From an uncultured Actinomycetes bacterium (lineage in GTDB: Bacteria; Actinomycetota; Thermoleophilia; Gaiellales; JAICJC01), in NCBI GenBank assembly GCA_963708365.1, contig CAVPSM010000013.1, forward strand, positions 123,345-187,344: a DNA stretch of 64,000 bases, in the 5' to 3' direction. Below the pieces are notes generated by a model. It was not told the DNA's origin. It saw only the letters and a program-made list of their open reading frames with translations, and did not search any database. The position numbers and the translations under genes are program-made. Positions 8,433-62,001 of the stretch are shown here, piece by piece (position 1 is the first letter of the stretch; each line of letters starts with the position of its first letter).

Positions 8433-9287
8433 ATGCTCGTCGTCACGGGATCCACAGGCCACGTGGGCCGCCTGGTGGCCGGCGAGATCTCGACGCGCGG
8501 CATGCGCCAGCGCCTGCTCGTGCGCGACCCCGAACGGGCGCCGGACATCGCCGGGGCCGAGATCGGGATGGCGGACTACGCCGACCCGGCGTCGGTGGCC
8601 GCGGCGCTCGAGCCGGACGACCGCGTCTTCATGGTCTCGCTGCACGAGGGGCCCGACCAGCGCGTGCCCCACCACCGCGCGTTCATCGAGGCTGCGGCCG
8701 GCGCCGGCGTCGCCCACATCGTCTACCTGTCGTTCGTCGCGGCCGGGCCGGACGCGATCTTCCTGCACGCCCGCTCGCACGGCGAGACGGAGCGGATGCT
8801 GGCGGAGTCCGGCGTCGCCTGGACGTCGGTCCGCAACTCGATGTACGCGGACGACATTCCCGGCTGGTTCGATTCCGACGGGCTGAACACGGTGCCCGCA
8901 GGCGAGGGCCGAATGAGCTTCTCGTACCGCCCGGAGCTGGCTCGCGCAATCGCGGTCACGCTCACCGAGCCCGGCCACGAGGGCAAGGTGTACGACATCG
9001 TCACACCCCAGTCCGTCAGCATGCGCGAGCTGGCCGAGATCGCGTGGGCGGTCACCGGCCAGAACTACCGCTATGCGGCGACCAGCGACGCGTGGTGGGA
9101 GGAGCGCTGGCGGGCGCGGGGCAAGGAGGCCTGGGAGATCGAGGCCGGGCTCACGTCCTACGCCGCCCTGCGCGCGGGCGAGTTCGACGTCGCGAGCGGC
9201 GACTACCGCACCCTCACCGGCGAGGATCCACTGTCGGTCTCCGACATCGCCGGCCTCCTGGCCGACCGCCTGCCGCTGCACGCGTGA
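8433..9287 (+). CDS. NmrA-like / atypical SDR NAD(P)-binding protein
   Basis: 284-aa ORF starting MLVVTGSTGHVGRLVAGEI (GxxGxxG), with NmrA-like length and layout. Confidence 0.85.
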   Translation: MLVVTGSTGHVGRLVAGEISTRGMRQRLLVRDPERAPDIAGAEIGMADYADPASVAAALEPDDRVFMVSLHEGPDQRVPHHRAFIEAAAGAGVAHIVYLSFVAAGPDAIFLHARSHGETERMLAESGVAWTSVRNSMYADDIPGWFDSDGLNTVPAGEGRMSFSYRPELARAIAVTLTEPGHEGKVYDIVTPQSVSMRELAEIAWAVTGQNYRYAATSDAWWEERWRARGKEAWEIEAGLTSYAALRAGEFDVASGDYRTLTGEDPLSVSDIAGLLADRLPLHA

Positions 9288-10484
9288 GCGTCGCGCAGGC
9301 GCTTGGGGTGAGCAGCTACCGGGAGCTGCTCTCGGCGGGCGAGGCGCGCCGCGTGGTCTCGTGGGGCCTGCTGGCGCGGATGCCGATGGGGATGAGCGCG
9401 CTTGCGCTCGTCCTGCTCGTCCGCAGCGAAGGTGGGTCCTACGCGACGGCCGGGATCGTTTCCGGCACATACGCCGTGGCCTCCGGCGCCGGCAGCGTCG
9501 TCGGCGGCCGGCTGGTCGACCGGCGCCCGCCCGCGCCGGTGGTGATCACCTACGCGCTCGCCTACGGCACCGCGCTTGCCGCCCTGCTCGCGCTCGCGCA
9601 CGCGCAGGTCGCCGAGCCGGTGCTGGTCGCGGCCACGCTGGTCGCCGGAGTGCTGGCGCCGCCGGTCGGCCCGACGATCCGGATGATGTGGCCGGCGATG
9701 CTGCCGCGGCCGGAGCTGCGCACGACGGCCTACGCGCTCGAGGCGACCATCCAGGAGGTCATCTTCGTCGTCGGGCCGCTGGTCGTGGGTGTGCTCGCCG
9801 CAACCATCCTCCGCCAGCGCCGGCATCGTCGCCGCCGGCGTGGCCTGCGTCGCCGGCTCGATCGGGTTCACGGCCACTCCGGCCGTCCGCGCCCGCCGGC
9901 CCGACCCGAGCCACGACCGTTCCGACCACCACGTGCTCCAGGCGCTCGTCCCGTGGGGGATCCGCCGCCTGCTCATGCTCGGCATCGCCTACGGCGTCGC
10001 GTTCGGCGCCGCCGAGGTGTCGATGCCGGCGTTCGCCGAGGGCCACGGCGGGCGGTCGCTGGGCGGCATCACGCTCGCCGCATTCTCGGGCGGCAGCCTG
10101 ATCGGCGGGGTGGTCGCCGGGGCCGCCGCCTCGAAGGGGCCGCTCAACCGCCGGCTCCGGGTGATCAGCGCCGTCTTCGTGCTCGTGATGATCCCGCCGC
10201 TGCTGGCCGGGTCGGTCGCCCAGATGGCGGTGGTCATGTTCATCGCCGGCCTCCCGATCGCGCCGAGCGTGGCGGTGGCCTACAACATGCTCGAGCGCGC
10301 TGCCGTGCCGGGCACGCAGGCGGAGATCTTCGGCTGGATGTCGACCGCCGTGACGATCGGGATCGCCATCGGCACCGCAGCCGGCGGCAGCCTGATCGCA
10401 CACACGGGCGTCCACGCCGCGCTTGTGCTCGGCATCGCCGGTGCCGCGGTCGCCTGCGCGATCACGTTCACCTCCGAGGAGTAA
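9284..10484 (+). pseudogene. MFS transporter with one frameshift (about 9805-9815)
   Basis: The N-terminal half lies in the frame of ORF 9044..10528, from the GTG at 9284 (GTGA overlap with the upstream stop): VSVAQALGVSSYRELL...VFVVGPLVVGVLAA. The C-terminal half lies in ORF 9789..10484: ...SAGIVAAGVACVAGSIGF...FTSEE. Confidence 0.75.
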
Positions 10485-10524
10485 CCGGTGCCCGGCACCA
10501 AACGGTGCCAGGCACCTCCTCTCC

Positions 10525-19744: not shown

Positions 19745-20254
19745 TCAGGTCGTGGCCGCGGACGCGACCTCCGTCTCCGGCGCCGGGGCAGCCTCGCCCT
19801 CGAAGAGCTCGGCGACGCTCGAGTCGATCGCCTCGGTGACGATCTGGGTGGAGCCCAGCACCTTCAGGATCTGCTCGGCCTGCGGCACCGCGTCCTGCGA
19901 GATCTCGATGACGGACGCCGATGAACCGGGCTGCATCGACTTGCCGAGCCTCTCGAGCTGGCTGTTCTTGAACCCGGAGTCGCGCAGCTTCGCGGTCAGC
20001 CCGCCGATGGTGCCGCCGGCCAGGATGCCGATCGGGCCGCCGATGATGCCGATCGCGCCGCCGAGCAGCGCGCCCCGGCCGGCGCCCCAGTCCTTCGACT
20101 CGATGAACTTCACCTTGCCGTCTTCGCGTACGACGAGGACGGCGGTGTTTCCGACCCGGTCGGGGAACGCTCCGCCCACCGAGGCCGCACCGCGCGTGCC
20201 GCCGTCGAGGGTGGTGAAGCTCGCCGCCAGGATCATGCGGGTGGAGTCGGCCAT
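19745..20254 (-). CDS. DUF1269-like membrane protein
   Basis: 169-aa ORF with a Gly-rich TM region GALLGGAIGIIGGPIGILAGGTIGGLTAKLRDSGF and ...MQPGSSASVIEI. Confidence 0.7.
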   Translation of the reverse strand: MADSTRMILAASFTTLDGGTRGAASVGGAFPDRVGNTAVLVVREDGKVKFIESKDWGAGRGALLGGAIGIIGGPIGILAGGTIGGLTAKLRDSGFKNSQLERLGKSMQPGSSASVIEISQDAVPQAEQILKVLGSTQIVTEAIDSSVAELFEGEAAPAPETEVASAATT

Positions 20255-20329
20255 TTCGCCTCCGTATTCGTTGGGAGCTCACCACCCTACCCCTGCGGAT
20301 TGAAGACGGCATTAGGATCGGAGCCGGAC

Positions 20330-21319
20330 GTGAAGATCGACGCCTTCGCACACATCTCCCCCATCCGCTACCTGGAGCGGGTCGAGGCGATCCTGGCGGC
20401 CCCGGGCGCGAGCGCCGCGGTGCGCGAGCACGGCCCGTGGCTACGCGAGGATCCGGTGCTCTACGACCTCGATGCCAGGGCGCGCACCCTGGAGCCGTTC
20501 GACGACTATCGCCAGGTGCTCGTGCTGGGAGCGCCGCCGATCGAGGAGCTGGGCGAGCCGGCCGTCACCCGCGACCTGGCCCGCTTCGCGAACGACGAGA
20601 TGGCGGCGCTCGTGCGCGACCACGACCGCTTCGTCGGCTTTGGCGCGGCGCTGGCGTTGAACGACGTGGACGCGGGCCTCGAGGAGTTGCGCCGGGCGGT
20701 GCGCGACCTCGGCGCGCTCGGCTTCCAGGTCTACTCCAACGTCAACGGCCGGCCGCTCGACGACCCTCGCTACCGGCCGCTGTTCGCCCTGGCCGAGGAG
20801 CTCGACGTCGCGATCTGGCTGCACCCGACCCGTAGCCCGGCCTGGCCGGACTACCCGGTCGAGACGGCGTCGCACCACGGCATCTGGTGGTCGATCGGCT
20901 GGCCGTTCGAGACGGCGGCGGCGATGTGCCGGCTGGTGTACTCGGGAGTCATGGAGGACCACCCGCGGCTGCGGATCCTGACCCACCACGCCGGCGCGAT
21001 GATCCCGTACTTCTCGGGCCGGTTTCGCAAGATTCAGACCGAGGACCAGCGGCCGGCGCTCGAGCGGCTGCCGCGCGAACCGCTGGAGTACTTCCGCCGC
21101 TTCTACGCCGACACGGCCCTGTTCGGCGCGCCGCACGCACTGCGCTGCACGCTCGACTTCTTCGGCCCCGATCGCGTCCTCTTCGGCACCGACATGCCGT
21201 TGGGCGGCCCCAACGTGGTGGGCGAGACGATCGCCGACGTCGACTCGCTCGCGCTCGCATCCGCCGATCTGGAGCGGGTCTACTCCGGCAACGCCCGCGA
21301 GGTGCTGCGGTGTGAATAA
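20330..21319 (+). CDS. Amidohydrolase_2 (ACMSD-like) family metal-dependent hydrolase/decarboxylase
   Basis: ORF 20300..21319. The likely start is the GTG at 20330 (VKIDAFAHISP, metal-binding HxH-like N-terminus). Also IWLHP...LTHHAGAMIPY...VLFGTDMP. The TAA stop lies inside the 31-bp repeat. Confidence 0.85.
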   Translation: MKIDAFAHISPIRYLERVEAILAAPGASAAVREHGPWLREDPVLYDLDARARTLEPFDDYRQVLVLGAPPIEELGEPAVTRDLARFANDEMAALVRDHDRFVGFGAALALNDVDAGLEELRRAVRDLGALGFQVYSNVNGRPLDDPRYRPLFALAEELDVAIWLHPTRSPAWPDYPVETASHHGIWWSIGWPFETAAAMCRLVYSGVMEDHPRLRILTHHAGAMIPYFSGRFRKIQTEDQRPALERLPREPLEYFRRFYADTALFGAPHALRCTLDFFGPDRVLFGTDMPLGGPNVVGETIADVDSLALASADLERVYSGNAREVLRCE

Positions 21320-21343
21320 AAGGGGTCTGACCCCGTTTATTCA
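21313..21343. repeat. 31-bp palindromic AT-armed element, copy 1
   Basis: TGAATAAAAGGGGTCTGACCCCGTTTATTCA. Identical to copy 3 and the reverse complement of copy 2. Confidence 0.9.
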
Positions 21344-22760
21344 GGGCGCCGTCGTCTACCAGATCTACCCCCGCTCGTTCCAGGACTCGGACGGCGACGG
21401 GATCGGCGACATCAGGGGCATCGTGCGCCGGCTGGACGAGCTTCACGCGCTCGGCGTCGACGCGCTCTGGCTCTCGCCGATGTACCCCTCGCCGCTCGCG
21501 GACGGCGGCTACGACGTGGCCGACTTCACGGGCGTCGACCGCCGCTTGGGCAGCCTCGACGACATCGGCGGAGCTGATCGCCGAGGCCCACCGGCGGGGG
21601 ATCGCGGTCCTGCTCGACCTCGTGCCCAACCACACGTCGATCGAGCACCCGTGGTTCCGCGAGCGCCCGGGCTGGTACATCTGGGCGGATGCGCCCGCAG
21701 AACAACTGGCGGGCGGCGTTCGGCGGGTCGGCGTGGACGTGCGACGAGCCCAGCGGCCGCTGGTACCTGCACTCCTTCTACCCGGAGCAGCCCGACCTCG
21801 ACTGGCGCAACCCCGAGGTCGTCGCGGCGATGCAGGACGTCGTCCGCACCTGGCTCGGGCGCGGCGTGGACGGGTTCCGCCTCGACGCGCTCGACTGCCT
21901 CGGCAAGCACCCCGACCTGCTCGACGACCCGCCGGCGACCGCGCCGCCGCCGTTCCCCGAGCCGGAGGAGGTGGCCGCGCTCGAGCGGCTCCACTCGCGC
22001 AACTGGATCCCCGACGGTGCGCCCGGCACTCGCGGCCCTGCGCGAGGCGGCCGGCGACGCGTTCCTGGTGGGCGAGGTGTACCGGCCGACGGCCGAGCTC
22101 GGGCCGTACCTCGAGTCGCTCACGTGCGCGTTCGTGTTCGAGCTGCTCTTCTCGGACTGGCGGGCTGACGCGCCTCGGCAGGGTGCTCGAGCGGGCGGGC
22201 GGCGATGGGCGGGCCGGCGTGGATGCTGTCCAACCACGACTTCGGCCGGGTCGGCTCGCGCATCGGCGAGGCCAACCTGCGCGCCGCGGCGATGCTGCTG
22301 CACACGCTGCCCGGGCCGGTGTTCCTCTACCAGGGCGACGAGATCGGCCTGCTGGACGGGCCCGGCGCCGATCCGCCGCTCGACCGCTACAGCCGCGACG
22401 GCGCACCGCCACCCGATGCAGTGGGACGCCGGCCCGCAGGGCGGGTTCACGACGGCACGCCGTGGCTCCCGGCCGTCGACCCCGGCCGAGCGCAACGTCG
22501 CCGACCAGCGCGGCGACCCCGGGTCGCTGTGGTCGCTCCACCGCGATCTGATCGTCCTGCGCCGGCAGCTCGGCGGAGGGCTGAAGCTGGTCGCAGCGGA
22601 CGCGGACGGCCGGCTCGCCTACCGCCGCGGCGACGTGCTCGTCACGCTCAACCTGGGCCCGGGGACGCTCCCGCTGCCGGACGGCGAGGTGGTCCTGCGC
22701 ACCCACTCCGGGCCGCAGCTCGGGCCGGGCGAGGGCGCGGTCGTGCGGAACCCTGGGTAG
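21340..22760 (+). pseudogene. GH13 alpha-amylase-family glycosidase (alpha-glucosidase / oligo-1,6-glucosidase-like), heavily frameshifted and lacking a start codon
   Basis: Homologous segments alternate among all three + frames: GAVVYQIYPRSFQDSDGDGIGDIRGI...LWLSPMYPSP / ELIAEAHRRGIAVLLDLVPNHTSIEHPWF / NNWRAAFGGSAWTCDEPSGRWYLHSFYPEQPDLDWRNPEV...GVDGFRLDAL / AFLVGEVY / PAWMLSNHDFGRVGSR...VFLYQGDEIGL / HPMQWDAGPQGGFT / GDPGSLWSLHRDLIVLR. I count at least 8 frame switches. The conserved N-terminus abuts repeat copy 1 with no ATG/GTG/TTG. Confidence 0.85.
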
Positions 22761-22770
22761 GCTACGAGCC

Positions 22771-23630: not shown

Positions 23631-23645
23631 TCCGGGGGAATCCCG

Positions 23646-23676
23646 TGAATAAACGGGGTCAGACCCCTTTTATTCA
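23646..23676. repeat. 31-bp palindromic AT-armed element, copy 2 (inverted relative to copies 1 and 3)
   Basis: TGAATAAACGGGGTCAGACCCCTTTTATTCA. It contains the TAA stop of the minus-strand ABC ATPase gene. Confidence 0.9.
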
Positions 23677-39253: not shown

Positions 39254-39368
39254 GACAAGGGGGGATTCTCGCTCTCGCAGTGAGCCGGGTCAAACGCGAC
39301 GGCCACACGGTTGGAAAGGCCCCGGAAACCGTATAGGCTCGCCGTGCCCCAAGACGATCAGGGATGAC

Positions 39369-48900: not shown

Positions 48901-48917
48901 CGGTGCTCAGCGAGCCG

Positions 48918-49388
48918 TCACGCGGCGACGGGCTCCTGCCGCGGACGGCATGGAACGTCTCGCGCGTCGTCGACGGGGTGATCACCATGACGGGGCACGG
49001 GCGCGTCGTGCAGCAGCCGCTGCGTCACGCTCGACGCGAGCACGCCGACGACCGGCTTGTGGCCACGGGTGGCGATGACGATGGCGCCTGCGCCGTGCTC
49101 CTTCGCCTGGCGGGCGATGACGGTCGCCGGATGGGCGAGCGACGTCGAGGCGAGCTCGAGATCGGCCTCGAAGCCCTCCGCACGCAGCTTGGCAACGATC
49201 TCGTGCAGCCGGGCGATGCGCTCATCCTCGTCGACGTGCACCGCGAAGCGGCCGCCGCGGGCGCCGGCCATGAGCTGGTTGACGTGCAGCACGACGATGC
49301 GCGACATGAACTGGGTCGCGAGCTCCTGGGCGGCCGGGAGGGCCCGCTCCGATTCTGTCCCGTCGAGTGCGACGATGATGGTTTCCAT
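48918..49388 (-). CDS. Universal stress protein (UspA family); probable frameshift at the C-terminal strand (about 48990)
   Basis: ATG at 49388 within ORF 48918..49466: METIIVALDGTESERALPAAQELA...IVVLHV...GAIVIATRGHKPVVGVLASSVTQRLLHDAPVP. The expected ...VMVI strand is in the adjacent frame (start of ORF 48302..48988). Confidence 0.75.
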   Translation of the reverse strand: METIIVALDGTESERALPAAQELATQFMSRIVVLHVNQLMAGARGGRFAVHVDEDERIARLHEIVAKLRAEGFEADLELASTSLAHPATVIARQAKEHGAGAIVIATRGHKPVVGVLASSVTQRLLHDAPVPRHGDHPVDDARDVPCRPRQEPVAA

Positions 49389-49483: not shown

Positions 49484-50639
49484 ATGGCGGACGACGACGG
49501 CCCCCACTATCCCGTCGCCAGCACCGGTGTCGCTGACCTGGACAGCGCCCTGCACGGCCTCTACTGGGGCGACAACGTCGTCTTCGAGCCCGACAGCACC
49601 GATACTGCCGTCCCGTTCTTCGCCGCCATCGCCGAGCACAGCGAGCCCTACGACCAGGCCGCCTACGTCACGCTCACGCTCGACCCGGAGCCGATCAACC
49701 GCGACTACCCCAGCCTCGGCGTCGTCGACGCGCGCCCGCACACGCCGCTCGCCGAGGCCGGCGCGCTCCTGAACGAGGTCCGCCGCCGCTCCAAGCCGCA
49801 GGCGCGGACGCTGCTCCTGTTCGACCCGCTCGACGACATGGCCGCGCGCTGGGGCACCGACATGGCCCGGCGGTTCTTCACCCGCTGCTGCCCGCTGCTG
49901 CTCGAGGTCGGCGCAATCGCGTACTGGACGCTCTCGCAGGGCGAGCGGTTCGAGGCGCTGCGGCGCGACGTCGAGGACGTGACCCAGTGCGTGCTCGTCG
50001 TCCGCGACGGCCGGCTGCGGATCGCGAAGGCCGAGGGCCGGCCCGTGGGCGTGCAGGGCAGCGTCTACCACTACCGGCTCGCCGACGGGAAGCCGGAGCT
50101 GACCCAGGCGCCGGCCGCGGCCCGGCTGGGCGGGGCGCTTCGGGCAGTGCGCATGCAGCGCCAGCTGAGCCAGGCCCAGCTCGCCCAGCTCGCCGGCGTC
50201 TCGGCGAGCGCGATCTCACAGGCCGAGCGAGGCCAGCGCGGCCTCTCGCTCGAGACGCTGCTCACGCTGACCGCGAACCTGAACATCACCGTCGATGAGC
50301 TCCTGCGCGGCCACGTCTCGCCCGGCTACCGGCTGGGCCGCCGCGACGACCCGGCGGCCGCCCCGACGGGCAATCCCGATCCCGCTGCTCGACGACCCCG
50401 AGGCCGGCCTGCGGGCCTACCTCGTCCGGCTCGCCCCGGGCGCGACCGCGACGCCGAACATCGACCACAAGGGGAGCGAGCTCGTCGCCGTCATCGGCGG
50501 GCTCGTCCAGGTGCAGCTGACGAGCGGACGGCCGGTACTGCGCCAGGGTGAAGCGCTGCTCGCGGACCGGTCGAGCATCCGTGGCTGGCGCAACATCGCC
50601 CAGCGTCCGGCCGCGCTCTTCTGGGTGATCAGGGACTAG
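49484..50639 (+). pseudogene. Three-domain regulator: degenerate KaiC/RecA-like N-domain - XRE HTH - cupin; one frameshift near 50385
   Basis: ORF 49484..50551 reads MADDDGPHYPVASTGVADLDSALHGLYWGDNVVFEP... (no Walker A) ...LRAVRMQRQLSQAQLAQLAGVSASAISQAERGQRGLSLETLLTLTANLNITVDELL. ORF 50295..50639 reads IPLLDDPEAGLRAYLVRLAPGATATPNIDHKGSELVAVIGGLVQVQL... (cupin). Confidence 0.7.
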
Positions 50640-50974
50640 CTGAGCGTGATCGGCACGTTCCAGGGATACATGTACGGGCCGTCCGATTCTGCGATCGACG
50701 CCCACGCCTGCACGTCGGCGGGGCCGGCCGCAAAGGCCGGGCCGGACACATGCGTGACATCGGCGGTCCAGCGGAACGAGCGTCCGCTCGCCGGCCGGTG
50801 AAGCAAACGGGATTCCCCGATGCCGACTGCCGTCGAGCCGTTTGCGCCCTGCTTGATCACGAACGTGACCACCGCCGCCTGCTCGGCGTTCTTCCAGGCG
50901 CCGGTCGGACCGTTGATGACGAAGTTCCCGTTCGCGTTTTGGAGCTTCTGCTGCTTGTTGACCTTGGGGCTCAT
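50636..50974 (-). CDS. Small protein of unknown family, paralogue C (112 aa)
   Basis: ATG at 50974 after GGAGGGAG, within ORF 50636..51001: MSPKVNKQQKLQNANGNFVINGPTGAWKNAEQAAVVTFVIKQG...VQAWASIAESDGPYMYPWNVPITLS. Confidence 0.65.
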   Translation of the reverse strand: MSPKVNKQQKLQNANGNFVINGPTGAWKNAEQAAVVTFVIKQGANGSTAVGIGESRLLHRPASGRSFRWTADVTHVSGPAFAAGPADVQAWASIAESDGPYMYPWNVPITLS

Positions 50975-51057
50975 GGTGCGCTCCCTCCGTGGAGTGTTCA
51001 CCCACGAGACGCGGCTGACAGGTGTTTCCTTCCGCAGTCGGCGGAGTCTGCGGGATG

Positions 51058-51345
51058 TCAGAGGTCGACCGAGATGTCGACGTCGCAGTCGTACGTCCCG
51101 AGGCCGCCGCCTTCTGCGATCGCGGCCCAGGCGTGGACAGCCGCCGCGCCGGTCTCGAACGGCGGACCCCGACCGGACGGTTGTACACCGTCGTCTCCCC
51201 CAGGCCGGCGCTCACGGAACCGGTCTCGACTGCGTGACCACGAAGAACATCACTGGCTCCGATTCGTCGCTATCCCCAGTCGCCGGTCGGCCCCTTCATG
51301 ACGAACCTGTCGAACCGCTCCCTTCTCGTCTCGACTGCCCTTCAC
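51058..51345 (-). pseudogene. Small protein of the same family, paralogue B, at least 3 frameshifts
   Basis: My translation gives a GTG at 51345 (GTGA overlap with the paralogue A stop). The pieces are ...RFVMKGPTGDWG / DSDESEPVMFFVVTQS / VETGSVSAGLGETTVYNRPVG / PPFETGAAAVHAWAAIAEGGGLGTYDCDVDISVDL, then a stop. Confidence 0.6.
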
Positions 51346-51746
51346 CTGGGCGGCATGGGCCTGGCCAGCCGCACCGGCAGTCTCCACTCATACACCCAGG
51401 ATCCGCCGTCGGTATCCGCGTAGAGCGCCCACGCCGCGGCCGTCGCGCCGCCTGGCTCAAGCGCAGCGCCTCCAACAACGTGCGCGGTGAGCTCCCACTT
51501 CGGCTCGGATGGCGTCGGGTCTGTCGGCTGCTCATACCTGCTTGACCAGCCGATCGATGTGACGATCGTCGGCTCGTCCCCATCGCCGACATCCTGCGAG
51601 ACCACGGCCGTGTAGACGGCGGCGCTGGTCGCCGGATCCCAGGTGCCCGCGGGTCCCGCCACCGCGACAGATTTCCCGTCAGGAGCCAGGTAGAGCACGT
51701 TGTCGATCTTCGGGCTCATCAGCGGTTTGAATGCCGGGGGTGGCAT
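51342..51746 (-). CDS. Small protein of the same family, paralogue A (134 aa)
   Basis: The ATG at 51746 sits 5 nt after AAAGGAG and 14 nt after the stop of the upstream cyclase-AAA-TPR gene: MPPPAFKPLMSPKIDNVLYLAPDGKSVAVAGPAGTWDPATSAAVYTAVVSQD...AAAWALYADTDGGSWVYEWRLPVRL. Confidence 0.7.
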   Translation of the reverse strand: MPPPAFKPLMSPKIDNVLYLAPDGKSVAVAGPAGTWDPATSAAVYTAVVSQDVGDGDEPTIVTSIGWSSRYEQPTDPTPSEPKWELTAHVVGGAALEPGGATAAAWALYADTDGGSWVYEWRLPVRLARPMPPR

Positions 51747-51760: not shown

Positions 51761-54700
51761 CTAGGAGGCGACGCCTGCGATCGCCTGTTCCAACCTGACG
51801 CTGCTGACAGCATTTCCCTTCCGCCGGTAGACGTCCAGGGCGCTCTCGCGGGCATGTAGCGCTTCCTGTGAATCGCCGGCCGCCTCGCGCACGACGGCCA
51901 GGTCTTCGAGGGCACCGGCGTGGTCGTTCAGGTAGTCGGTCCGCTCGGCAAGCGCGACCGCGTCGCGTGCCAGCCGCTCGGCCTCGCGCAGCCGTCCCTG
52001 CCCGGCCAGCGCACCGCCCGCACCCGCCGCCACATCACCTGTGCCGCCAGATCGCCGTCGGTGGTGAGCCTTGCGGAGCGGCGCGCGAGCCGATCGGCCT
52101 CCTCCACCCGGTCCTGGGCGAGCACGGCCATCCCCAGCATCGCCTCGGTCGAGGCGAGCACGGCCTTCTCGCCCATCGCCTCCAATTGGCGCCGACCGGA
52201 ACGCAGGTGGCGCTCGGCTCGCGCCGGCTCGCCTGCAAGCATCGACACGAGCACCTCGGGGTGCGAGACCGCCGCGTCGACCGTCGGAGAGAAGCCCGCC
52301 AGCGCCTCGTTCGCGTCATCCAGCAGCGCGAACGCGCGATCGAACTCACCGCGCATCGCGTGGAGGCCCGCGACCTGATGCTGGACGAGCGCCGCTGCCC
52401 ACGGGTTCGTGGTCAGGCGCCCAAGGATCTCCGTACAGCGGGCGAATGCCTCCTCCACCGGTGTCGGACCTTGTGTCGCCGCGGACGCCTCCCAACCGAG
52501 CGCGTCCGCCAGGGTGCGGTCGTCCGTGGCCAACGACGCATGCTCAGCGGCCCACCGCCAGCACTCCGACGCATCGCCCGCGCGAGCCTGGATCCACGAC
52601 AGCAGTCCCCGCAGATGCCACAGCCGCGCCAGTCCGGCGTGGTCCTCGGCCTCGGTCAGCGTCGCCGACAGCCGTGCGCCCCGGCGCGAGGCCTGACGGG
52701 CCACTCCCTCGGGATCGACCTGCAGCTGCGCCAGCATCCGCTCCACCTGAGCGCGCGCGACAAGCGCCGAGTCGTCGCAGACCTTCGCGATCCGCGTCGC
52801 CTGGGCAAGGGCGGTGTTGGCCTCGTCGAAGCGACCCTCCTCCCCCAGCACGCCGCCGAGGTCGATCAGCAGGGCAGCCCGCTCCGGATCCTCTGCCGGC
52901 CGCAGCGCAACCGCGCGGCGGAGCAGACTGGCGGCCGCGGCCCGGTCGCCGGCCCGCAGCACCCGCCGCCCGGCGGCGCTCAGGTACCCCGAGGCGTCCG
53001 CAGCCAGAGCGCGGTGCGGCAGCGCATCGACCCGGCCCAGCTCGCGCCGGTACGCGTAGGCCCGCTCGAGGTGGTAGCCGATGATCTCGTCGAGCTCACG
53101 CTCCTCGGCGGCCGGCCCGCGCAGCCAGTCCGCGAACCCGATGTGGAGCTCGGCCCGGCGCCGCTTCGGGATCAGCTCATACGCCGCATCGCGGACGAGG
53201 AGGTGGGTGAAGCGGTAGGCATCGTCGGCCGCGACGTCGCGCCGCGCGGGACGTACCAGCTCGCGCCTCTCGAGCTCCGCGAGGCCGGCGTCGACGTGCA
53301 CATCGGGGTGGTCGGCGAGAAGCGCCGCGATGACGACGCGCCGGAACTCGCGCCCCTCGACTGCCCCCGCCTCAATCACCCTGCGGGCGTGGTGCGGCAA
53401 CCCGTCGACGCGGGCGGCAAGCAGCGCCTGGATGCTCGGCGGCACGGCCTTGGAGGGGTCATCCGAGCGCATGGCCACGAGGTGCTCGAGGAAGAGCGGG
53501 TTCCCCTCCGCCGCCGCCAGGATCTCGAACCGGCGTAGCTGCGCGCCCTGACGGCCGGCAAGGCCGCGGAGGAGCTTCGAAGAGTTGGTGTCCGAGAGCG
53601 GCCGCAGCCGAAGCGTCGCCCCGCGCCCGAACGCGGTCGCCCACGACGGCCGCCGCTCGAGCAGGTCGTCCCGGGCGAGACACACGATGCCGACCGGTGC
53701 GCTCGTCACATAGCCGGCCAGGTACTCGATCAGGTCGAGCAGAGGTGGCTCCGCCCACTGGATGTCGTCGAACGCGACGAGCAACGGCTGCGGCCGCGCG
53801 ATCGACTCGAGCAGGCGGCGCACCGCCCACTGCACGTCCTGCGCGGTCGCGGTCGACTGCGACCGGCCGATCGCGCCGGAGACCATCGCCGCGGCCAGCG
53901 TGTCCTGATCGTCACCCGGCATGAGCCGCTCGAGCGCGTCGACCCCACCCAGGTCGTCGACGATCTCCTTCAGCGGCCAGTACGTGATGCCCTCGCCGTA
54001 GGGGAGGCAGCGGCCGACCACGATGCGCGCCTCCGGCTCGACCTCGGAGACGAGCTGGCGGACGAGCCGCGACTTGCCGATCCCCGCTGGACCGAGGACG
54101 GTCGTGACGACGCAGCGGCGCGACTGGGTGGAGACCGCGAAGCGGCGGCGGAGCGCTCCCAGCTCTCGCTGCCTCCCCACCATCGCCGCGCCCGAGCCGC
54201 GGCGCAGGCGGATGCGATCGGGCGCGAGGCCCTCGACCCGCCACGTGCGCATCCGCCCGGTCTTGCCGCGCAGCTCGAGGTCGTCATGGCGGCGGACCCG
54301 CACGGCGGCGGCCACGAGCCGGTGCGTCTCGGGGCCGATCAGCACCTCGCCGGTCGGCGCCGACGCCTGCAGGCGCGCGGCGGCGTTCACCGCGTCACCG
54401 GCGATCAGCCCCTGGTCGAGGGCGCGCTCGTCGGTGATCACCTCGCCCGTGTGCACGCCGATCCGTACGCCAAGCTCGACGCCGTACTCGCGGTCGAGCT
54501 CGCGGTTCAGGTCGGCCAGGCCGTCCCGCATCTCGAGGGCCGCCCGGACGGCTCGGAGCGCGTCGTCCTCGTGCAGCACCGGCACCCCGAACACGGCCAT
54601 CACCGCGTCGCCGATGAACTTCTCGACCCGGCCGCCGTGGCGCTCGAGCACCTGCCGCATCTCACCGCCGTAGCGGGTCATTACATGCTGGAACGACTCC

Positions 54701-54816
54701 GGATCGAGCCGCTCGCCGAGGCCCGTCGACCCGACCACGTCGGAGAAGACGATCGTGACCGTCTTACGAACCCGCGCACCCACCGCAGACTCGCGACTCA
54801 CGTTACGAGCCTCCAC
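51761..54816 (-). CDS. Class III adenylate/guanylate cyclase - AAA/STAND ATPase - TPR protein; one frameshift near 52013 close to the C-terminus
   Basis: ORF 51928..54816 (962 aa) reads VTIVFSDVVGSTGLGERL...EKFIGDAVMAVFG...GVHTGEV...GDAVNAAARLQ, with P-loop VLGPAGIGKSRL and TPR-like repeats. The last approx. 85 aa continue in ORF 51761..52033 (...ALAGQGRLREAERLARDAVALAERTDYL...), consistent with a GGG-to-GG deletion. Confidence 0.85.
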
Positions 54817-54898
54817 ACGCGCGATCTTACGGGACGGGCCGAGACGGCGGGCGTTACGGTACGAAAGGTTTCCGCGGCGTCCGCGGACGCCTCACTCG

Positions 54899-57800
54899 AT
54901 GCGCCGGTTCGACGGACAGCCGCTCCTCTCCCCCTCCGACCTGAACAACCTGCTCGAGTGCCGCCACCTGATGGCGCTCGAACTCGCCCGGTTCAGCGGC
55001 AACGGGGTCGCAACGGTCGGGCCGCGGCGCGCACGTCGACATCCTCGCCCGCTACGGCGAGCAGCACGAGGCCGCGATCCTGGAGGCGTACGAAGCGAGT
55101 GGGCGAACCGTCGAGCGCGGGTCGGGGCCGGCGCGAGGATGAGTTCCGCGCCGCGCATCGAGCAGACGCTCGAGGCGATGCGCGCGCGGCGTCGACGTGA
55201 TCCACCAGGCGACGCTCGAGGGCGACGGGTTCGGTGGATATGCCGACTTCCTGGAGCGCGTCGCGCTGCCCTCCGCCCTGGGCGACTGGAGCTACGAGGT
55301 GGCCGACGCGAAGCTGGCGCGCGCGACGAAGGGCTACTTCCTGGTGCAGCTGTCGGTCTACGCCGCGCTGCTCGAGAGCCTCCAGGAGCTCGAGCCCGAG
55401 AGCTCGGGTGCTGCTCGGCGACGGCCGCCGGGACTCCTACCGCACCGACGACTTCGCCGCCTACGTGCGGAGGACCGGGCGTGCGCGGAGCGAGACCATC
55501 GCGGCCGGGCTCGGCAAGACCTATCCCCTGCCCTGCGGCCACTGCCCGCATCTGCGTCTACCGTCAGCACTGCGACCAACGACGGCGGGCAGACGACCAC
55601 CTCTCTCTCGTGGCGGGCATCCGCCGCGACCAGGTGGCCCGGCTGGAGCTGGACGGGATCGCGACGCTCGCGGCCCTGGCGGGGCTCGATCCCGAGCGGC
55701 CCGTCCAGCAGTTTCCCAGCGACTCGCTCGCGAAGCTGCGTCGCCAGGCGGCGCTCCAGCTACCCGAGCGCGAGACCGGGGAGCAGTGCTACGAGCTGCT
55801 CGATTACGGGCCGGGCCACGGCTTCGGCCTGCTGCCCGAGCCCGCGCCAGGCGACCTCTTCTTCGACATCGAGGGCGACCCCTACATCGGCGACCGCGGC
55901 CTCGTGTATCTGTTCGGCTCGGCTGGCTGGAGGTGCCGAGGAGCACTACGAGGTGTTCTGGGCGCACATCGCGAAGCAGGAGAAGGCGGCGTTCGAGCGT
56001 GCTGGTCGACTTCATCATGGGCTGGCGCGCAGCGGCACCCGGGCTGCCACATCTACCACTACGGCGCCGATCGAGGAGACGGTGCTGAAGGCAGCTCGCG
56101 ATGTACCACGCCACCCGCGAGCCCGAGGTGGACACGCTGCTTCGCGCCGGCGCCCTGGTCGACCTCTACGGCGTCGTCCGGCAGGGCGTGCGCATCTCCA
56201 AGGAGAGCTACTCGCTGAAGAAGGTCGAGGACTTCTACTGGGGCGAGCGCGCGAGGCAGGTGAAGGAGGCGGGCGGCTCGATCGTCGCGTACGAGAGCTG
56301 GCTGGGCACGGCGACCAGGCCCAGCTCGACGCGATCGCGCTCTACAACCGCGAGGACGTGCCAGTCGACGCGCGGCTTGCGCGACTGGCTGCTGCGGCTG
56401 CGCGAGGAGCTCGTCGCGACCGGCGCGGCGGTCGAATGGCGGCCCGACCGGCCGAGGGAGCCGAGGAGGCGGCCGAGGAGATCGATGCCGAGACGGCGGC
56501 GCTGCGGGACACGCTGCTCGCAACCGGCGAGCCCGACGACCGGCTGCTGGGCGAGCTGCTGATGTACCACCGGCGCGAGGCCAAGCCCTCGTAGTGGTGG
56601 TACTTCGAGCGAGTCGAGAAGACCGAGGAGGAGCTGCGCGACGACGACGACGAGGCGATCGGCGGCCTGAGCCCGCCGGCCCGGAGATCCAGCTGGCGCA
56701 GTCGCGCGGCGTGCCGATGCGGTTCCCGCTCCAGTCGATGAAGCTCGATGCGGGCGGCGTCGGTCGACCCGGCCAGCGAGCGCGGCGCGGAGATCGTGGA
56801 GATCGACCCGGTCGCGGGCACGCTGACGCTGAAGCTCGGGCCGAAGAACTGGGGCAGGATCCGGTGCCACGGTCGCTGATCCCGGGTGAGCCGCTGCCCG
56901 ACACGAGGTGCAGCGCGCAGCGCTGCGCCGCCTGGCGGCGTGGCGTGCTCGGCGGCGGCACGGCGGCTATCCGGCGGCGCGCGCGCTGCTTCGCCGCGAC
57001 GGCCCGCGGATCGCCGGCAGTCCGCCCGGGAGCCCGCTCCTGGCCGGCGGCTACACGGTGGAGCAGGCCGTCGACCTGGCGCTCCGGCTCGATGCAGCGA
57101 TGCTCCGATCCAGGGCCCCCGGGGACGGGCAAGACCTACGCGGGTGCGCAGATCGCCGTCGCGCTGATGGCGCGGGACGACGGGTCGGCGTCACCGCGCC
57201 CAGCCACAAGGCGATCCACAACCTGCTCGAGGAGATCGAGCGGATCGCGCGCGCCGCGGGCGTGGCGTTCCGCGGGCTACAAGCGAGCGGCGACAGCGAC
57301 AACGCGTACGACTCGCCGCTCGGCGACGGGGGCTCGATCGAGAACGTCGCCAACGACGCGATCGAGGCGGCGTCCGGCGACGTCCTGCTCGTCGCCGGCA
57401 CGGCGTGGCTGTTCGCGCGGGAAGGGATGGCGGACGCGATCGACACGCTGATCGTCGACGAGGCGGGCCAGGTCGTCCCTGGCTGACACGCTCGCCGTCG
57501 GCACGAGCGCCGCAACGTCATCCTGCTCGGCGATCCGCAGCAGCTCGCCCAGGTCGCCCAGGGCGGGCACCCGGAGGGACGGCGGTGTCCGCGCTCGCAC
57601 ACGTGCTCGGCGGGGATGCCGGACGATCGCGCCCGAGCGCGGCCTCTTCATCGACGTCAGCCGGCGCATGCACCCCGACGTGTGCGCGTTCGTCAGCGAG
57701 ATCAGCTACCCGGCGAGCTCCACAGCCGGCCGGAGTGCGCCACCCAGCGGGTGGACTCCGCCGGCCTGTCCGGGACGGGCCTGCGCTGGTTCCCGGTCGC

Positions 57801-58248
57801 GCACGGCGGGAACCGCCGCGAGTCGCCCGAAGAGGGCGACCTCATCGCCAACCAGGTCGCGCTGCTCGAGGGGGGAATCGTGACCCGGTTCGACGGCAGC
57901 ACGGTCCCGATCGATGGGGCCGGCGTGATGGTGGTGACCCCCTACAACGCCCAGGTGCGGCTGCTGCGGGACCGGCTCCCGGCCTGGGTCGAGGTCGGCA
58001 CGGTCGACAAGTTCCAGGGCCGCGAGGCAGCGGTCGTGTTCTTCTCGATGGCCACGTCGAGCGGCGAGGACGTGCCTCGCAACGCCGAGTTCCTCTACTC
58101 CCGGAACCGGCTCAACGTCGCGGTATCGCGGGCGAAGTGCCTCGCCGTGCTCGTCGCGAGCCCGGACCTCCTCACGGTGCGGTGCAAGACCGTCGAACAG
58201 ATGCGGCTCGTGAACGCCCTGTGCCGCTTCGTCGAGCTGGCCTCCTAG
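54899..58248 (+). pseudogene. RecB-like (TM0106-type, PD-(D/E)xK) nuclease fused to a superfamily-1 DNA2/Upf1-like helicase, at least 12 frameshifts
   Basis: Starts MRRFDGQPLLSPSDLNNLLECRHLMALELA. Further pieces are HQATLEGDGFGGYADFLERV...WSYEVADAKLA, DLFFDIEGDPYIGDRGLVYLFG, HIYHYGA, LVDLYGVVRQGVRISKESYSLKKVE and LYNREDV. The helicase part reads GPPGTGKTY (Walker A), TLIVDEAGQV, ILLGDPQQL, VVTPYNAQV, VGTVDKFQGREAAVVFFS and RLNVAVSRAK. These are spread over ORFs 54755, 55197, 55234, 56101, 56594, 56908, 57405 and 57616. Confidence 0.85.
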
Positions 58249-58278
58249 CACCGCGGCCGCGGTGGTAGGCTCGCGGCC

Positions 58279-59793
58279 GTGCGAGGGGGACGCGCGATGC
58301 TGGTGGCGGCCGTTGCCGCCGGGACGATCTTCGGCGGGGGAGGTGTGCCGGCTGTCGCGCACACGCCAATTGGCGTCGCGCACACGCCAATTGCGACGGT
58401 GCGCGTCGCCCAGTTCAACTGCGACATCTCCGACGAGTTCCCGATCATCAAGGCCTCGCTCGTCGCCCGCGCCATCCGGGCCAGCGGCGCCGACGTGGTC
58501 GGGATCGAGGAGGGCGGCGGCGAGATCCCCCAGATCGCGCACGCGCTCGGCTGGCGCTACTACGACATCCGCATGCAGATCGTCTCGCGGCTGCCGCTGG
58601 TCGACCCGCCCGACGGGCACGGCCTCTACACCTACGTCGAGGTCTCCCCCGGCCGTGTCGTCGCGATGGAGAACGTCCACCTGCCGTCGGCGCCGTACGG
58701 CCCCGTGTGGGTGAAGCACGGCAAGACCCCGGCGCAGGTGATCGCGATGGAGAAGCGCGTGCGCCTTCCGGCGATCGAGCCCGACCTGACCGCCGCCCGG
58801 ACGCTCCACACCCGTGGAATCCCGACGTTCCTCACCGGCGACTTCAACTCGCCGTCGTTCCGCGACTGGACGAAGGCGACGGTCGGCACGGAGCCCTGGC
58901 GCGACTACCCGTTGCGCTGGCCGGTCTCGGCCGCGGTCGAGGCAGCCGGGTTCACCGACTCGTTCCGGGCCGTCCACCCGAACCCGGTGAAGACGCCCGG
59001 GCTGACCTGGCCGGCGCACCGCACGATCCCGGGGGTCGACCTTTTCCTCGGCGAGCCGACGGACCGGATCGACTTCGTCTTCGCCCGCGGGGCGCGTCCG
59101 GTCGCGAGCACGATCGTCGGCGAGCCTGGCGCGCCCGGCACATCGGCGACGGTGGCGCCGTGGCCGTCCGACCACCGCCTGGTCGTCTCGACGTTCCGCG
59201 TCCGCGGGGCAACGCCCCCGGCGCTCGTCACCGTGCCGCACCGACTGGTGCGCATCGGCGACACGGTGCCGGTCTCATTCCACGCGGGCGGGCCGGTGAC
59301 CGCGGTTGCCGTCGAGCACCTTCGCGGCGGGACGGCGAACACGGTGGCCACCCGAAACGTCGCCGGCGCGCACGGGATCGGGACGGTCGCCTTCTCGAGC
59401 GGCGACTGGGCGGCGGGCGCGTACGCGGCCGTCCTGCTCGGCCCGGGCGGGCACGCCCTGTCGCAGTTCCCGTTCTGGGTGGCCGCGCCCGGCGCGCCGC
59501 CGGTCATCCACGCCACTAAACCGGTCTTCGCAGTCGGCGCGCCAGTTGGCGTGACCGTCAAGAACGCGCCCGGCGATCGCTGGGACTGGCTCGGCATCTA
59601 CCGCCGCGGCGCAAACCCGCTCGTCGCGTCGTACCTACTCTGGGGCTACACGCACTCCGCCATCGACGGCATGTTCATGTTGCGCCCGAGCGGCATCTTC
59701 GCCGTCCCGCTCACGCCCGGCCGCTACACGGTCTACCTGCTGCGCGACGATCTGTACGTGAAGATCGCCGGCGCGAACTTCGTCGTGCGCTGA
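58279..59793 (+). CDS. Secreted endonuclease/exonuclease/phosphatase (EEP) family protein with a C-terminal beta-sandwich region
   Basis: 504-aa intact ORF with a signal-like N-terminus. EEP pieces are VAQFNC...VGIEEGG, FLTGDFNSP, TDRIDFVF and WPSDHRLV. Confidence 0.8.
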   Translation: MRGGRAMLVAAVAAGTIFGGGGVPAVAHTPIGVAHTPIATVRVAQFNCDISDEFPIIKASLVARAIRASGADVVGIEEGGGEIPQIAHALGWRYYDIRMQIVSRLPLVDPPDGHGLYTYVEVSPGRVVAMENVHLPSAPYGPVWVKHGKTPAQVIAMEKRVRLPAIEPDLTAARTLHTRGIPTFLTGDFNSPSFRDWTKATVGTEPWRDYPLRWPVSAAVEAAGFTDSFRAVHPNPVKTPGLTWPAHRTIPGVDLFLGEPTDRIDFVFARGARPVASTIVGEPGAPGTSATVAPWPSDHRLVVSTFRVRGATPPALVTVPHRLVRIGDTVPVSFHAGGPVTAVAVEHLRGGTANTVATRNVAGAHGIGTVAFSSGDWAAGAYAAVLLGPGGHALSQFPFWVAAPGAPPVIHATKPVFAVGAPVGVTVKNAPGDRWDWLGIYRRGANPLVASYLLWGYTHSAIDGMFMLRPSGIFAVPLTPGRYTVYLLRDDLYVKIAGANFVVR

Positions 59794-59798
59794 CCGCG

Positions 59799-59829
59799 TG
59801 AATAAAAGGGGTCTGACCCCGTTTATTCA
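59799..59829. repeat. 31-bp palindromic AT-armed element, copy 3
   Basis: TGAATAAAAGGGGTCTGACCCCGTTTATTCA lies between the convergent EEP and MarR genes. The MarR TGA stop lies in its right arm. Confidence 0.9.
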
Positions 59830-60255
59830 GTCGCCCGCCAATCGCGCCAGGAGCCCCGTCGCCTCGGCGAGCACCTTGCGCTCGCGGGTGTTCAGGTCGG
59901 TGCGGATCGCGTCAGCCAGCCAGCCGACTCGCTGAGCGCGGTCGGCGGCCAGCACGTCGCGGCCGGCCGCCGTGAGGTCGATCGCGACACGGCGGCGATC
60001 CTGAGCGTCCGGTGAGCGCGCCACCAGGCCGGCGTCCTCGAGCGCTTCCACGGTCGCGGCCATCGACTGCGGGCGGACGTGCTCCGCAGCGGCCAGCGCA
60101 CTGATCCCTGAGGGCCCGCCGCGGTCGAGCCGGCCGAGCACGATCACCTGTGCCAGCGGGATCCCGTGGCGCTGGACGCGCTCGGCGCGCAGCCGGCGGA
60201 CGATCCGTCCGAGGACGACGCGCAGCTCGGCGGCAACCATCTCGGGCTCGACCAT
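59827..60255 (-). CDS. MarR-family transcriptional regulator
   Basis: 142-aa ORF: ...LAQVIVLGRLDRGGPSGISALAAAEHVRPQSMAATVEALEDAGLVARSPDAQDRRRVAIDLTAAGR.... Confidence 0.85.
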   Translation of the reverse strand: MVEPEMVAAELRVVLGRIVRRLRAERVQRHGIPLAQVIVLGRLDRGGPSGISALAAAEHVRPQSMAATVEALEDAGLVARSPDAQDRRRVAIDLTAAGRDVLAADRAQRVGWLADAIRTDLNTRERKVLAEATGLLARLAGD

Positions 60256-60296
60256 GTATGCAGCATACCTGAACAGTTTGCCTGTAGAATTGGTGA

Positions 60297-62001
60297 GTGG
60301 CCGCCGACCGATACAAGTGGATCGCGCTCTCGAACGTGACGCTCGGCGTCCTCCTCGCGACGCTCGACGCCTCGATCACGCTGATCGCGATGCCCGACAT
60401 CTTCCGCGGCATCAAGCTCGACCCGCTCGTCCCGTCGAACAGCTTCTATCTGCTCTGGATGATCCTGGGCTACCTGGTCGTCTCGAGCGTGCTGATCGTG
60501 AGCCTCGGCCGGCTCGGCGACATGTACGGCCGGGTGCGGATCTACAACCTCGGGTTCGTCATCTACACGGTGGCCTCGCTGTTCCTGACGGTCACCTGGA
60601 TGACCGGGCGCGCGGGCGCGACGTACCTGATCGTCTTCCGGATCGTCCAGGGCCTCGGCGGCGCCTGTCTGCTGGCCAACGCCGCCGCGATCATCACCGA
60701 CGCGTTCCCGTCCAACCAGCGCGGCATGGCGCTCGGTATCAACAACATCGTGGGCGTGAGCGGCATGTTCGTCGGCCTCGTGCTGGGCGGGCTGCTGGCC
60801 CCGATCAGCTGGCGGCTCGTGTTCCTCATCTCGGTCCCGGTCGGCGTCGCGGGCACGATCTGGGCGTACATGAAGCTCGAGGAGCGCGGGCTGCGCAAGC
60901 GGGCGCCGGTCGACTGGTGGGGGAACATCACCTTCGCCCTCGGACTCGTGCTCCTGATGGTGGCGGTCACCTACGGCATCCGGCCGGCGAACGGCCACGC
61001 CACCGGCTGGACGAGCGCTGCGGGTCCTCGCCCTGGTCACCGGCTCTGTCGTCAGCCTGGTCGCCTTCGCCATCATCGAGCGGCGCGTCGAGAACCCGAT
61101 GTTCCGGCTGCCGCTCTTCCGCATCCGCGCATTCACCTTCGGGACGCTCTCGACGTTCCTCTCGGCGGTCGCCCGCGGCGGGCTCATGTTCATGCTGATC
61201 ATCTGGCTGCAGGGGATCTGGCTGCCCCAGCACGGCTACGACTTCAAGGACACGCCGCTCTGGGCAGGCATCTACATGCTGCCGCTGACCCTGGGGATGC
61301 TGGTCGCCGGGCCGACGTCGGGCTACCTCTCCGACCGCTTCGGCTCGCGCCTGTTCGCGACGGCCGGGATGATCGGCGCCGCCTGCAGCTTCGGCCTCCT
61401 GCTCCTGCTCCCGATCGACTTCTCCTACCCCGTCTTCGCCGCCGTACTGGCGCTGAACGGGATCTCGATGGGCCTCTTCGCCTCGCCCAACCGGGCCGGG
61501 GTGATGAACAGCCTGCCGGCTGCCGACCGCGGCGCCGGCGGCGGGATGAACCAGACCTTCCAGAACTCGGCCCAGGTGCTCTCGATCGGGATCTTCTTCA
61601 CGCTCATGATCCTCGGCCTGGCCGCGACGCTCCCGGATGCGATCCACACCGGCCTCGTCGGCCACGGCGTCCCCGCAGCGACGGCCGCGCACGTCTCGCA
61701 CCTGCCGCCCGTCTCGATCCTCTTCGCCGCCTTCCTCGGCTACAACCCGATCGGCCACCTGCTCGGGCCGGGGGTGCTGCACGCCCTCTCCGTCCACCAG
61801 CAGGCCGTGCTCACCGGACGCTCGTTCTTCCCCGATCTGATCGCGACGCCGTTCGAGAACGGCCTGCACGCCGCCTTCGGCTTCGCGATCGTCGCCTGCC
61901 TGGTCGCCGCAGGAGCCTCGCTCATGCGCGGCGGTCGCACCGCCGCCCAGATCGAGCAGGCGCCGCCGCTCCGGCGGGCCGAGGCCGAACGCGCCGCCTG
62001 A
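60297..62001 (+). pseudogene. MFS drug:H+ antiporter (DHA2/EmrB-QacA-like, 14-TMS type), one frameshift near 61015
   Basis: The GTG at 60297 opens ORF 60297..62177 (MAADRYKWIALSNVTLGVLLATLDASITLIAMP...GRLGDMYGR...GWTS). It continues as RVLALVTGSVVSLVAFAIIERRVENPMFRLPLFRIRAF... in ORF 61099..62001. Divergent from marR. Confidence 0.8.

Follow-up and report, generated by a model that had tools for sequence, protein, structure and literature searches.

Do the many broken reading frames in one stretch of an uncultured actinomycete genome record the decay of accessory genes, or do they reflect errors in the sequence itself? The analyzed stretch (hereafter the window) comprises 64 kb of contig CAVPSM010000013.1 (positions 123,345 to 187,344) from the Gaiellales assembly GCA_963708365.1, has a G+C content of 71%, and contains zero Ns. 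An earlier note, based on reading of the frames by eye, described intact genes next to shredded ones, the latter including a GH13 alpha-glucosidase, a sugar transporter permease, a hybrid histidine kinase, a PD40/RTX protein, and a nuclease-helicase. The note preferred relaxed selection on accessory genes as an explanation, gave locally poor consensus as the alternative, and stated, correctly in our view, that the choice between the two decides every functional inference for 21-58 kb. From the comparison of the window with its relatives, we concluded that the breaks are very probably kilobase-scale patches of locally poor consensus and not decaying genes.

Clustering of the reading-frame breaks

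Reading frames were traced by two methods. The first was a seven-state Viterbi trace (six frames plus a non-coding state) using a codon-usage model trained on the long open reading frames (ORFs) of the window that are rich in G+C at third codon positions (GC3). Because this model switches frame at stop codons instead of reading through them, it reports zero in-frame stops inside its segments. The second method was a purpose-written protein-to-DNA aligner that permits frameshifts, which was run against intact orthologues.

The clustered reading-frame breaks are real features of the window sequence. In the first 21.3 kb, the Viterbi trace gave a single same-strand switch, in the major facilitator superfamily (MFS) transporter gene where the earlier note had read its only break, and all other same-strand frame changes in this interval coincide with stop codons and represent ordinary gene borders. 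Between 21.3 and 58.3 kb, dozens of frame changes were observed with the old frame still open. Translations stitched over these switches produced continuous Pfam matches: profile positions 1-254 of Alpha-amylase run without interruption across three junctions, and the HisKA, HATPase, and REC domains of the hybrid kinase, the PD40 and RTX repeats, and the RNase_H_2 and AAA_12 domains of the nuclease-helicase were likewise recovered. Because of this continuity, the frame breaks are genuinely in the sequence and interrupt real genes.

The breaks fall into patches extending over approximately 21.57-22.99, 25.6-27.9, 32.0-33.8, 42.16-42.95, 44.5-49.0, 50.4-52.1, and 55.0-57.7 kb. Indel density was 12.8 per kb within the patches compared to 0.17 per kb, or about 70-fold lower, outside them, and the index of dispersion over 500-nt bins was 4.4 (p = 5e-16), demonstrating clustering far above chance. 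This patch clustering bears out the argument that uniform sequencing error cannot give the observed mosaic. The previous count of 50-60 frame switches was about half of the total, which we estimate at ~100 protein-level events and more than 110 indels, including Viterbi-only switches in the intervals without reference sequences; the undercount is explained by closely spaced compensating indels that are invisible to frame reading. Of the two in-frame stops reported before, one was confirmed directly (position 56592, in the helicase gene), and the other was not.

Frameshift-aware alignment detected zero frameshifts in sixteen genes, namely those for PNPOx, ADH, aminotransferase, a 391-aa protein, methyltransferase, DUF1269, Amidohydro_2, ABC ATPase, AraC, RibD_C, the response regulator, EEP, MarR, a 388-aa protein, ABC2 ATPase, and the N-terminal 540 codons of the cyclase-AAA-TPR protein. 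Seven genes of this set lie at 14.2-21.3 kb. Neighbors that had been called intact are so: the ABC ATPase and EEP genes belong to the above set, the REC-cyclase ORF is unbroken, and the cyclase-AAA-TPR gene has one break.

Comparison of the broken genes with intact relatives

Reference contigs of varying relatedness cover several parts of the window. The JGI contig L081, which encodes the intact 1113-aa helicase P0001, is 97.0% identical to the window over 54019-64000 and has the same gene order (helicase, EEP, MarR, MFS, 388-aa protein, and ABC component); the Logan contig L082, an independent assembly that is 99.97% identical to L081, matches the helicase region at about 96%. The contig L083, carrying the 482-aa alpha-glucosidase P0241, is 96.9% identical over 20036-22769. 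More distant references are the metagenome contigs L084 (88-91% identity, 19.3-28.3 kb) and L087 (85%, 53.2-64 kb) and the L089 contig of an NCBI metagenome-assembled genome (86%, 14.2-30.56 kb). The names attached to these relatives point to soil actinobacteria of the Gaiellales or Thermoleophilia. A scan of the GTDB species representatives with the window ABC ATPase yielded a best match of 54% identity and thus no sister genome, and exact-protein look-ups with the window ABC ATPase, AraC regulator, and response regulator gave no match. For 30.5-53 kb, the searches yielded no near-identical sister, a metagenome scan with the kinase as a query being one example, and the 50-kb contig of another helicase homologue, P0010, showed no synteny with the window.

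In the nuclease-helicase region, alignment of the window with L081 by blastn over 10 kb revealed 244 mismatches and 47 gaps, and 45 of these gaps are confined to Patch C (Table 1), with zero gaps in the 990 nt before it (54019-55008) and the 2.1 kb after it (57712-59810); the first 110 nt and the last 535 nt of the gene are clean. With default scoring, the Patch C indels comprise 24 insertions and 21 deletions, 40 of 1 nt and 5 of 2 nt. The protein-to-DNA aligner detected 34 events at 55010-57710, well above the minimum of 12 read previously, and the shortfall relative to the 45 nucleotide indels is due to the merging of close compensating pairs. When the indels were removed with L081 as a guide, the helicase became readable over 1113 codons, with an internal stop at one position (56592-56594, TAG in the window versus TAC), the only stop beside 45 indels. 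The corrected protein is 94% identical to P0001 overall, 93% within the patch, and 99% outside it. The 99 mismatches in Patch C include 48 synonymous, 49 non-synonymous, and 2 stop-creating changes (single-base scoring), and the clean ends of the gene carry 5 synonymous and 2 non-synonymous changes.

The GH13 gene contains eight 1-nt indels relative to L083 (seven insertions and one deletion at 21566-22480; blastn). Eight frameshifts at 21567-22490 were also obtained with both the L083 and the L089 proteins, in agreement with the at least 8 breaks noted earlier. Both L084 and L089 put the GH13 indels at the sites indicated by L083 and add three insertions at 22768-22991 in the following gene for a 285-aa protein, for which the frameshift-aware alignment gave 1 (+2) frameshifts at position 22987. 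The Amidohydro_2 gene upstream of GH13 has zero indels compared to L083.

The sugar transporter genes of Patch B were compared by blastn with L084 (91% identity) and L089 (86%), revealing indels of 1-2 nt that number about 27, or 26 when default penalties are used. In the gene for permease 1, 3-4 breaks had been read at the 5' end; we found five, all within 25617-25768, so that every frameshift of this 831-nt gene lies in its 5' 170 nt and none in its 3' 660 nt. The permease 2 gene has 5 frameshifts (26056-26746), and the gene for the sugar-binding protein has 6-8 (26822-27861). The ABC ATPase gene adjoining Patch B differs from L084 by a sole in-frame 3-nt indel and has no frameshifts. The ratio of synonymous to non-synonymous mismatches in permease 1 is 34:9 in the clean part versus 8:13 in the dirty part.

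Thus, GH13 and the helicase are intact in the assemblies of an approximately 97%-identical strain (L081, L082, and L083), and the permeases and the binding protein are intact in 86-91%-identical relatives. The more distant relatives L084, L087, L088, and L089 have intact genes and the same placement of the window indels, with the window being the outlier at every indel. Extra mismatches, largely non-synonymous and stop-creating, sit in the patches, whereas the clean parts of the same genes show mostly synonymous ones. After frame correction, the broken genes are conserved at 4.1-4.9 score units per residue relative to the relatives, and their intact neighbors at 3.8-5.2. These comparisons show that the errors lie in the window and not in the relatives, and that their signature is technical rather than mutational.

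Origin of the patches

The alternative of locally poor consensus is supported by the intact relatives described above, by patches that cross gene borders, and by the indel spectrum. The patches disregard gene borders: Patch B covers parts or all of three genes and a spacer, and Patch A spills from GH13 into its neighbor. Among the 82 indels in Patches A-C there are 49 insertions and 33 deletions; 75 are of 1 nt, 7 are of 2 nt, and none is of 3 nt or longer. No adjacent identical base is present at 76% of these indels, compared to 49% expected for random placement, i.e., they are depleted at homopolymers, and the indel bases have a G+C content of ~76%, like the genome. Homopolymer slippage was rejected, given this depletion next to identical bases. 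A GC-dependent loss of coverage was also rejected, as the G+C content of the patches (0.65-0.75) equals the range of the clean stretches.

Such features would arise in an accurate assembly interrupted by low-quality stretches of 0.8-2.8 kb with ~1-1.7% random 1-2-nt indels and extra substitutions. Most likely, these stretches would be segments built from few, unpolished long reads, such as those inserted to fill or bridge gaps in a hybrid assembly; by another route, they could be remnants of a long-read draft only partly reached by short-read polishing. Either a gap fill from few long reads or a partly polished draft is expected in assembly practice to give such patches, and an excess of insertions over deletions without homopolymer preference is closer to PacBio continuous-long-read (CLR)-type error than to nanopore homopolymer error. 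Frameshifts caused by long-read errors that falsely pseudogenize genes are a documented artefact, addressed by the Kastor tool (PMC12007338). The window resembles this artefact of long-read and hybrid assemblies in that ORFs preserved whole in close references are broken by 1-2-nt indels, with indels and substitution errors about equally frequent, and in that removal of the indels restores a continuous reading of the genes. It differs in that the errors avoid homopolymers and occupy sharply bounded 0.8-2.8 kb patches, as opposed to being spread along the assembly, a pattern that suggests segments left unpolished or at low depth locally instead of a uniform platform error.

Several points weigh against poor consensus as the general explanation. 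We infer the technical cause from its signature in the sequence. The homopolymer depletion is at odds with the most frequent type of nanopore error and is accounted for only in part; it counts against homopolymer error of the nanopore kind in particular and leaves random-indel error unaffected. The interval 30.5-53 kb has no near-identical sister, and Patches D-G were assigned by analogy and intragenic clustering. The junction at 30556, described below, may be a real deletion, which would mean some true gene loss in the region. Finally, the patch limits were set after viewing the data, which somewhat favors the contrast between patches and flanks, although the bin-based dispersion test is independent of these limits.

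Among the other explanations, a consensus artefact of strain mixture, in which collapsed reads of co-existing strains, rather than low depth or missing polishing, would create spurious indels, is improbable but survives best. Metagenomes do contain related strains that differ by 1-4%, as L081 and L083 illustrate relative to the window; the affected region is accessory-like, and the patches have the kilobase scale of recombination or variable tracts. However, the synonymous divergence within Patch C (48 changes in 2.7 kb) is within the range of its clean flanks, and the most divergent tract of the compared region, at 58.75-59.75 kb in the EEP (Exo_endo_phos) gene, is free of any indel. This tract (58750-59750) reaches 29 mismatches per 250 nt relative to L081 with zero indels, the whole EEP gene having 58 synonymous and 30 non-synonymous changes; it resembles genuine divergence or a tract of recombination, and it offers a useful internal contrast to the error patches.

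True pseudogenes, formed by relaxed selection on accessory genes while the neighbors remain under selection, were preferred in the earlier note, and we consider them very unlikely. The broken genes do belong mostly to accessory types (sugar uptake, signalling, RTX protein, and nuclease-helicase), many non-synonymous mismatches accompany the breaks, and one structural loss, of ~3.5 kb at 30556, is possibly real. Moreover, disruption of ORFs that are intact in orthologues, the usual mark of a pseudogene, was observed at 5-34 frameshifts per gene, but sequence error would produce this mark equally well. Wherever it can be tested, this explanation is contradicted by the broken genes being intact in ~97% or 86-91% relatives; it is largely refuted by the sister strain for Patches A and C and by the more distant relatives for Patch B. 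The lesions are neither gene-wide nor gene-confined, since they cluster in parts of genes and cross gene borders, and this indifference to genes speaks against relaxed selection because relaxed selection acts on whole genes. The clean gene parts keep the signature of purifying selection, as seen for permease 1, so that no gene-wide loss of it has occurred.

The indel spectrum is equally difficult to reconcile with pseudogene formation. Deletions are at least as frequent as insertions in spontaneous mutation, and indels concentrate in repeats and homopolymers, whereas in the window insertions exceed deletions, zero indels are of 3 nt or longer, and no homopolymer association is seen. Only one in-frame stop accompanies the 45 helicase indels. 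In addition, these indels stand beside ~50 non-synonymous or stop-creating substitutions at ~3% distance from an intact sister; with the 48 synonymous mismatches taken as background, indels rival the patch-specific substitutions, although several-fold more substitutions would be expected from spontaneous indel rates, which are several-fold below substitution rates (regression, PMC4978911). Even L087 and L081, which are 14% apart, differ by just 30 gap openings in 12.7 kb. Pseudogene accumulation of the Mycobacterium leprae type is similar in having multiple frameshifts per gene and intact genes beside disrupted ones. In contrast to it, the window has intragenic clusters that cross gene borders, an indel-to-substitution ratio near 1, more insertions than deletions, no long deletions within patches, almost no in-frame stops, and a ~97%-identical strain with intact GH13 and helicase genes.

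Real localized hypermutation, in which kilobase tracts of error-prone synthesis would recently have hit many loci of one living lineage, is barely credible. Sharply bounded patches with both indels and substitutions would suit it, but the ~97% sister lacks the indels of Patches A and C, the 86-91% relatives lack those of Patch B, and the loss of many genes at one time would have to be assumed for such a genome. To our knowledge, no bacterial process gives ~1.5% random 1-nt indels outside repeats over several kilobases and at many loci at once. Programmed ribosomal frameshifting and phase variation also produce an apparent frame change inside a functional gene, but there the change is tied to slippery heptamers or repeat tracts, at one or two positions in each gene. 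The broken genes have 5-45 sites each, with shifts of both signs and outside repeats, which led us to reject both mechanisms.

Returning to patches of poor consensus, the underlying genes are most likely intact, with gene callers and frame readers seeing the patches as shredded genes. The genes at 21-58 kb, including the alpha-glucosidase/sugar ABC-transporter operon, the hybrid kinase, the PD40/RTX gene, and the RecB-like nuclease-helicase gene, should accordingly be annotated as intact but mis-sequenced, and any genome decay, accessory-gene loss, or high pseudogene load inferred from them for this organism would be an artefact. The broken frames are not real as biology, and their value is that of a quality-control warning for annotation of the window. 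They also suggest a read-free recipe for similar cases: find a near-identical metagenome contig, ask whether the breaks respect gene borders, and evaluate how indels compare in number with substitutions, and insertions with deletions, together with the placement of indels relative to homopolymers.

The 30.5-53 kb interval, isolated breaks, and neighboring features

Table 1. Patches, isolated breaks, and the junction located in the 64-kb window (positions are those of the window)
Feature	Position	Strand	Content	Evidence
MFS transporter gene, isolated frame switch	9684-9900	+	Switch at 9818/9819	Viterbi
Patch A	21566-22991	+	GH13 alpha-glucosidase gene and start/inside of next gene (285-aa protein)	
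Patch B	25615-27947	-	5' 170 nt of permease 1, all of permease 2, intergenic spacer, sugar-binding protein gene	
Glyoxalase gene, isolated break	28526-28530	-	1-nt deletion in AAAA run, codon 3	Sequence read directly
Histidine kinase (HK)/RND junction	30551-30560	+	~55 sensor-kinase codons fused to second half of RND (ACR_tran) pump	
Patch D	32008-33757	+	RND pump C-terminus and region with sigma-70 region 4 and Peptidase_M78 matches	
Patch E	42157-42954	+	HATPase-REC end of hybrid histidine kinase	
MFS_1/cNMP_binding gene	44540-44667	+	Probable break between the two parts; lower confidence	Viterbi, stop-codon bounds, Pfam
Unannotated gene	45827, 46184	+	Frame switches; lower confidence	Viterbi, stop-codon bounds
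PD40/RTX gene (46354-47744)	46863-47696	-	Breaks	Frameshift-aware alignment to P0374
Region downstream of Usp domain	48516-48994	-	Three frame switches in putative coding sequence	Viterbi only
HTH-cupin regulator	50371	+	Break	Viterbi
Small paralogous gene pair	50.98-51.55 kb	-	Two to three breaks	Viterbi
Cyclase-AAA-TPR gene	near 52.05 kb	-	Break; last ~56 codons cut off	
Patch C	55009-57711	+	Within TM0106/RecB-like nuclease-helicase gene (54899-58246)	
Intergenic palindromic repeat	59811	.	Isolated 1-nt insertion in G-run	blastn vs L081
567-aa MFS gene (60297-61999)	61020	+	Isolated 1-nt G insertion that splits the gene	blastn vs L081

Within the 30.5-53 kb interval, the breaks in the hybrid kinase and the PD40/RTX gene were placed with more distant orthologues. 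Ten kinase orthologues with 60-70% amino-acid identity were available, whose synteny with the window is limited to the kinase gene itself; they are usable for frame mapping, not for nucleotide comparison. All ten place the same eight events in Patch E, compared to the at least 6 breaks claimed earlier. The first 2.37 kb of the gene (39784-42156) are clean, so that 8 of 8 frameshifts fall in the last ~1.05 of 3.4 kb, and the tblastn frames agree. For the PD40/RTX gene, the single useful orthologue was P0374 (462 aa, 61% identity), the other matches being mostly giant repeat proteins; 8 breaks were found, compared to the at least 6 noted earlier, identically at two penalty settings, with the 3' 500 nt clean. 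The intragenic clustering observed against these more distant orthologues suggests poor consensus for both genes. By analogy, the patches at 32.0-33.8, 44.5-49.0, and 50.4-52.1 kb are probably also regions of poor consensus. Patch D contains at least 7 net frame switches by the Viterbi trace and stop-codon bounds, with Pfam matches spanning the junctions, and the switch at 48994 marks the end of the Usp Pfam match. In the cyclase-AAA-TPR gene, a TPR-like continuation beyond the break is visible in another frame of the three-frame translation.

The junction at 30556 is of a different kind. The response regulator is followed at the junction (30389-30560) by only ~55 codons of its sensor kinase, and collinearity of L089 with the window stops at 30560. 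At this locus, L089 encodes the response regulator, the histidine kinase (467 aa), BTAD (241 aa), and ACR_tran (1046 aa), ~3.5 kb of which are missing from the window. The ACR_tran Pfam match in the window begins at profile position 453 of 1021, and CzcA-like proteins align only from residue ~491-497. The gap of ~3.5 kb is either a real deletion or an assembly mis-join and is thus a possible real lesion.

Isolated breaks occur at 9.8, 28.5, 52.05, and 61.02 kb; together with the 30556 junction, they could be either residual errors or real lesions. In the MFS gene at 9.8 kb, the old frame is open until 10526, and the new frame opens after 9684. The glyoxalase gene starts as ATG CTG AAA AGC TGA, its frameshift-aware alignment begins at residue 4, and a second 1-nt deletion is located near its 3' end at 28129 (gaps relative to L089; one frameshift in the frameshift-aware alignment). 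For the 567-aa MFS gene, the frameshift-aware alignment also gave one frameshift, at 61020. The G-run insertion at 59811 may be real variation.

Several neighboring features were recorded during the analysis. In L084, an extra FAD_binding_3 monooxygenase gene (positions 4376-5788 of that contig) is located between the genes for the 285-aa protein and the ABC ATPase; it is absent from the window (~23630-23690) and from L089, representing ordinary gene-content variation. A complete ARPP-1 domain protein (PF20208) and a repetitive protein rich in Thr, Val, and Lys (TVKVKGKTV... TTTVTTV) are encoded in succession at 35916-37617, and the ~620 nt after the latter gene are called non-coding by the codon model. 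The intact REC-cyclase ORF (38192-39253, minus strand) reads as a predicted receiver joined to a class III adenylate/guanylate-cyclase-type domain with an FTDLRGFT motif. An Hpt-domain ORF (39349-39653) lies upstream of the hybrid kinase gene (39784-43200), and Hpt forms the C-terminus of the kinase in the ten orthologues. The two paralogous small ORFs at 50637-51722 (minus strand) start with MSPK... and contain a common motif of the type 'NGPTGAWK.../AGPAGTWD...', and the broken copy is the upstream one.

The window also contains three copies of a 29-nt AT-rich palindromic repeat, GAATAAAAGGGGTCTGACCCCGTTTATTC, at 21314-21342, 23647-23675, and 59800-59828, with a chance expectation of zero. 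L089 lacks the repeat at the 21311 site. Every copy of GAATAAAAGGGGTCTGACCCCGTTTATTC directly follows stop codons, and two of the three are located between convergent genes; the element looks like a bidirectional terminator hairpin or a repetitive extragenic palindromic (REP)-like element.

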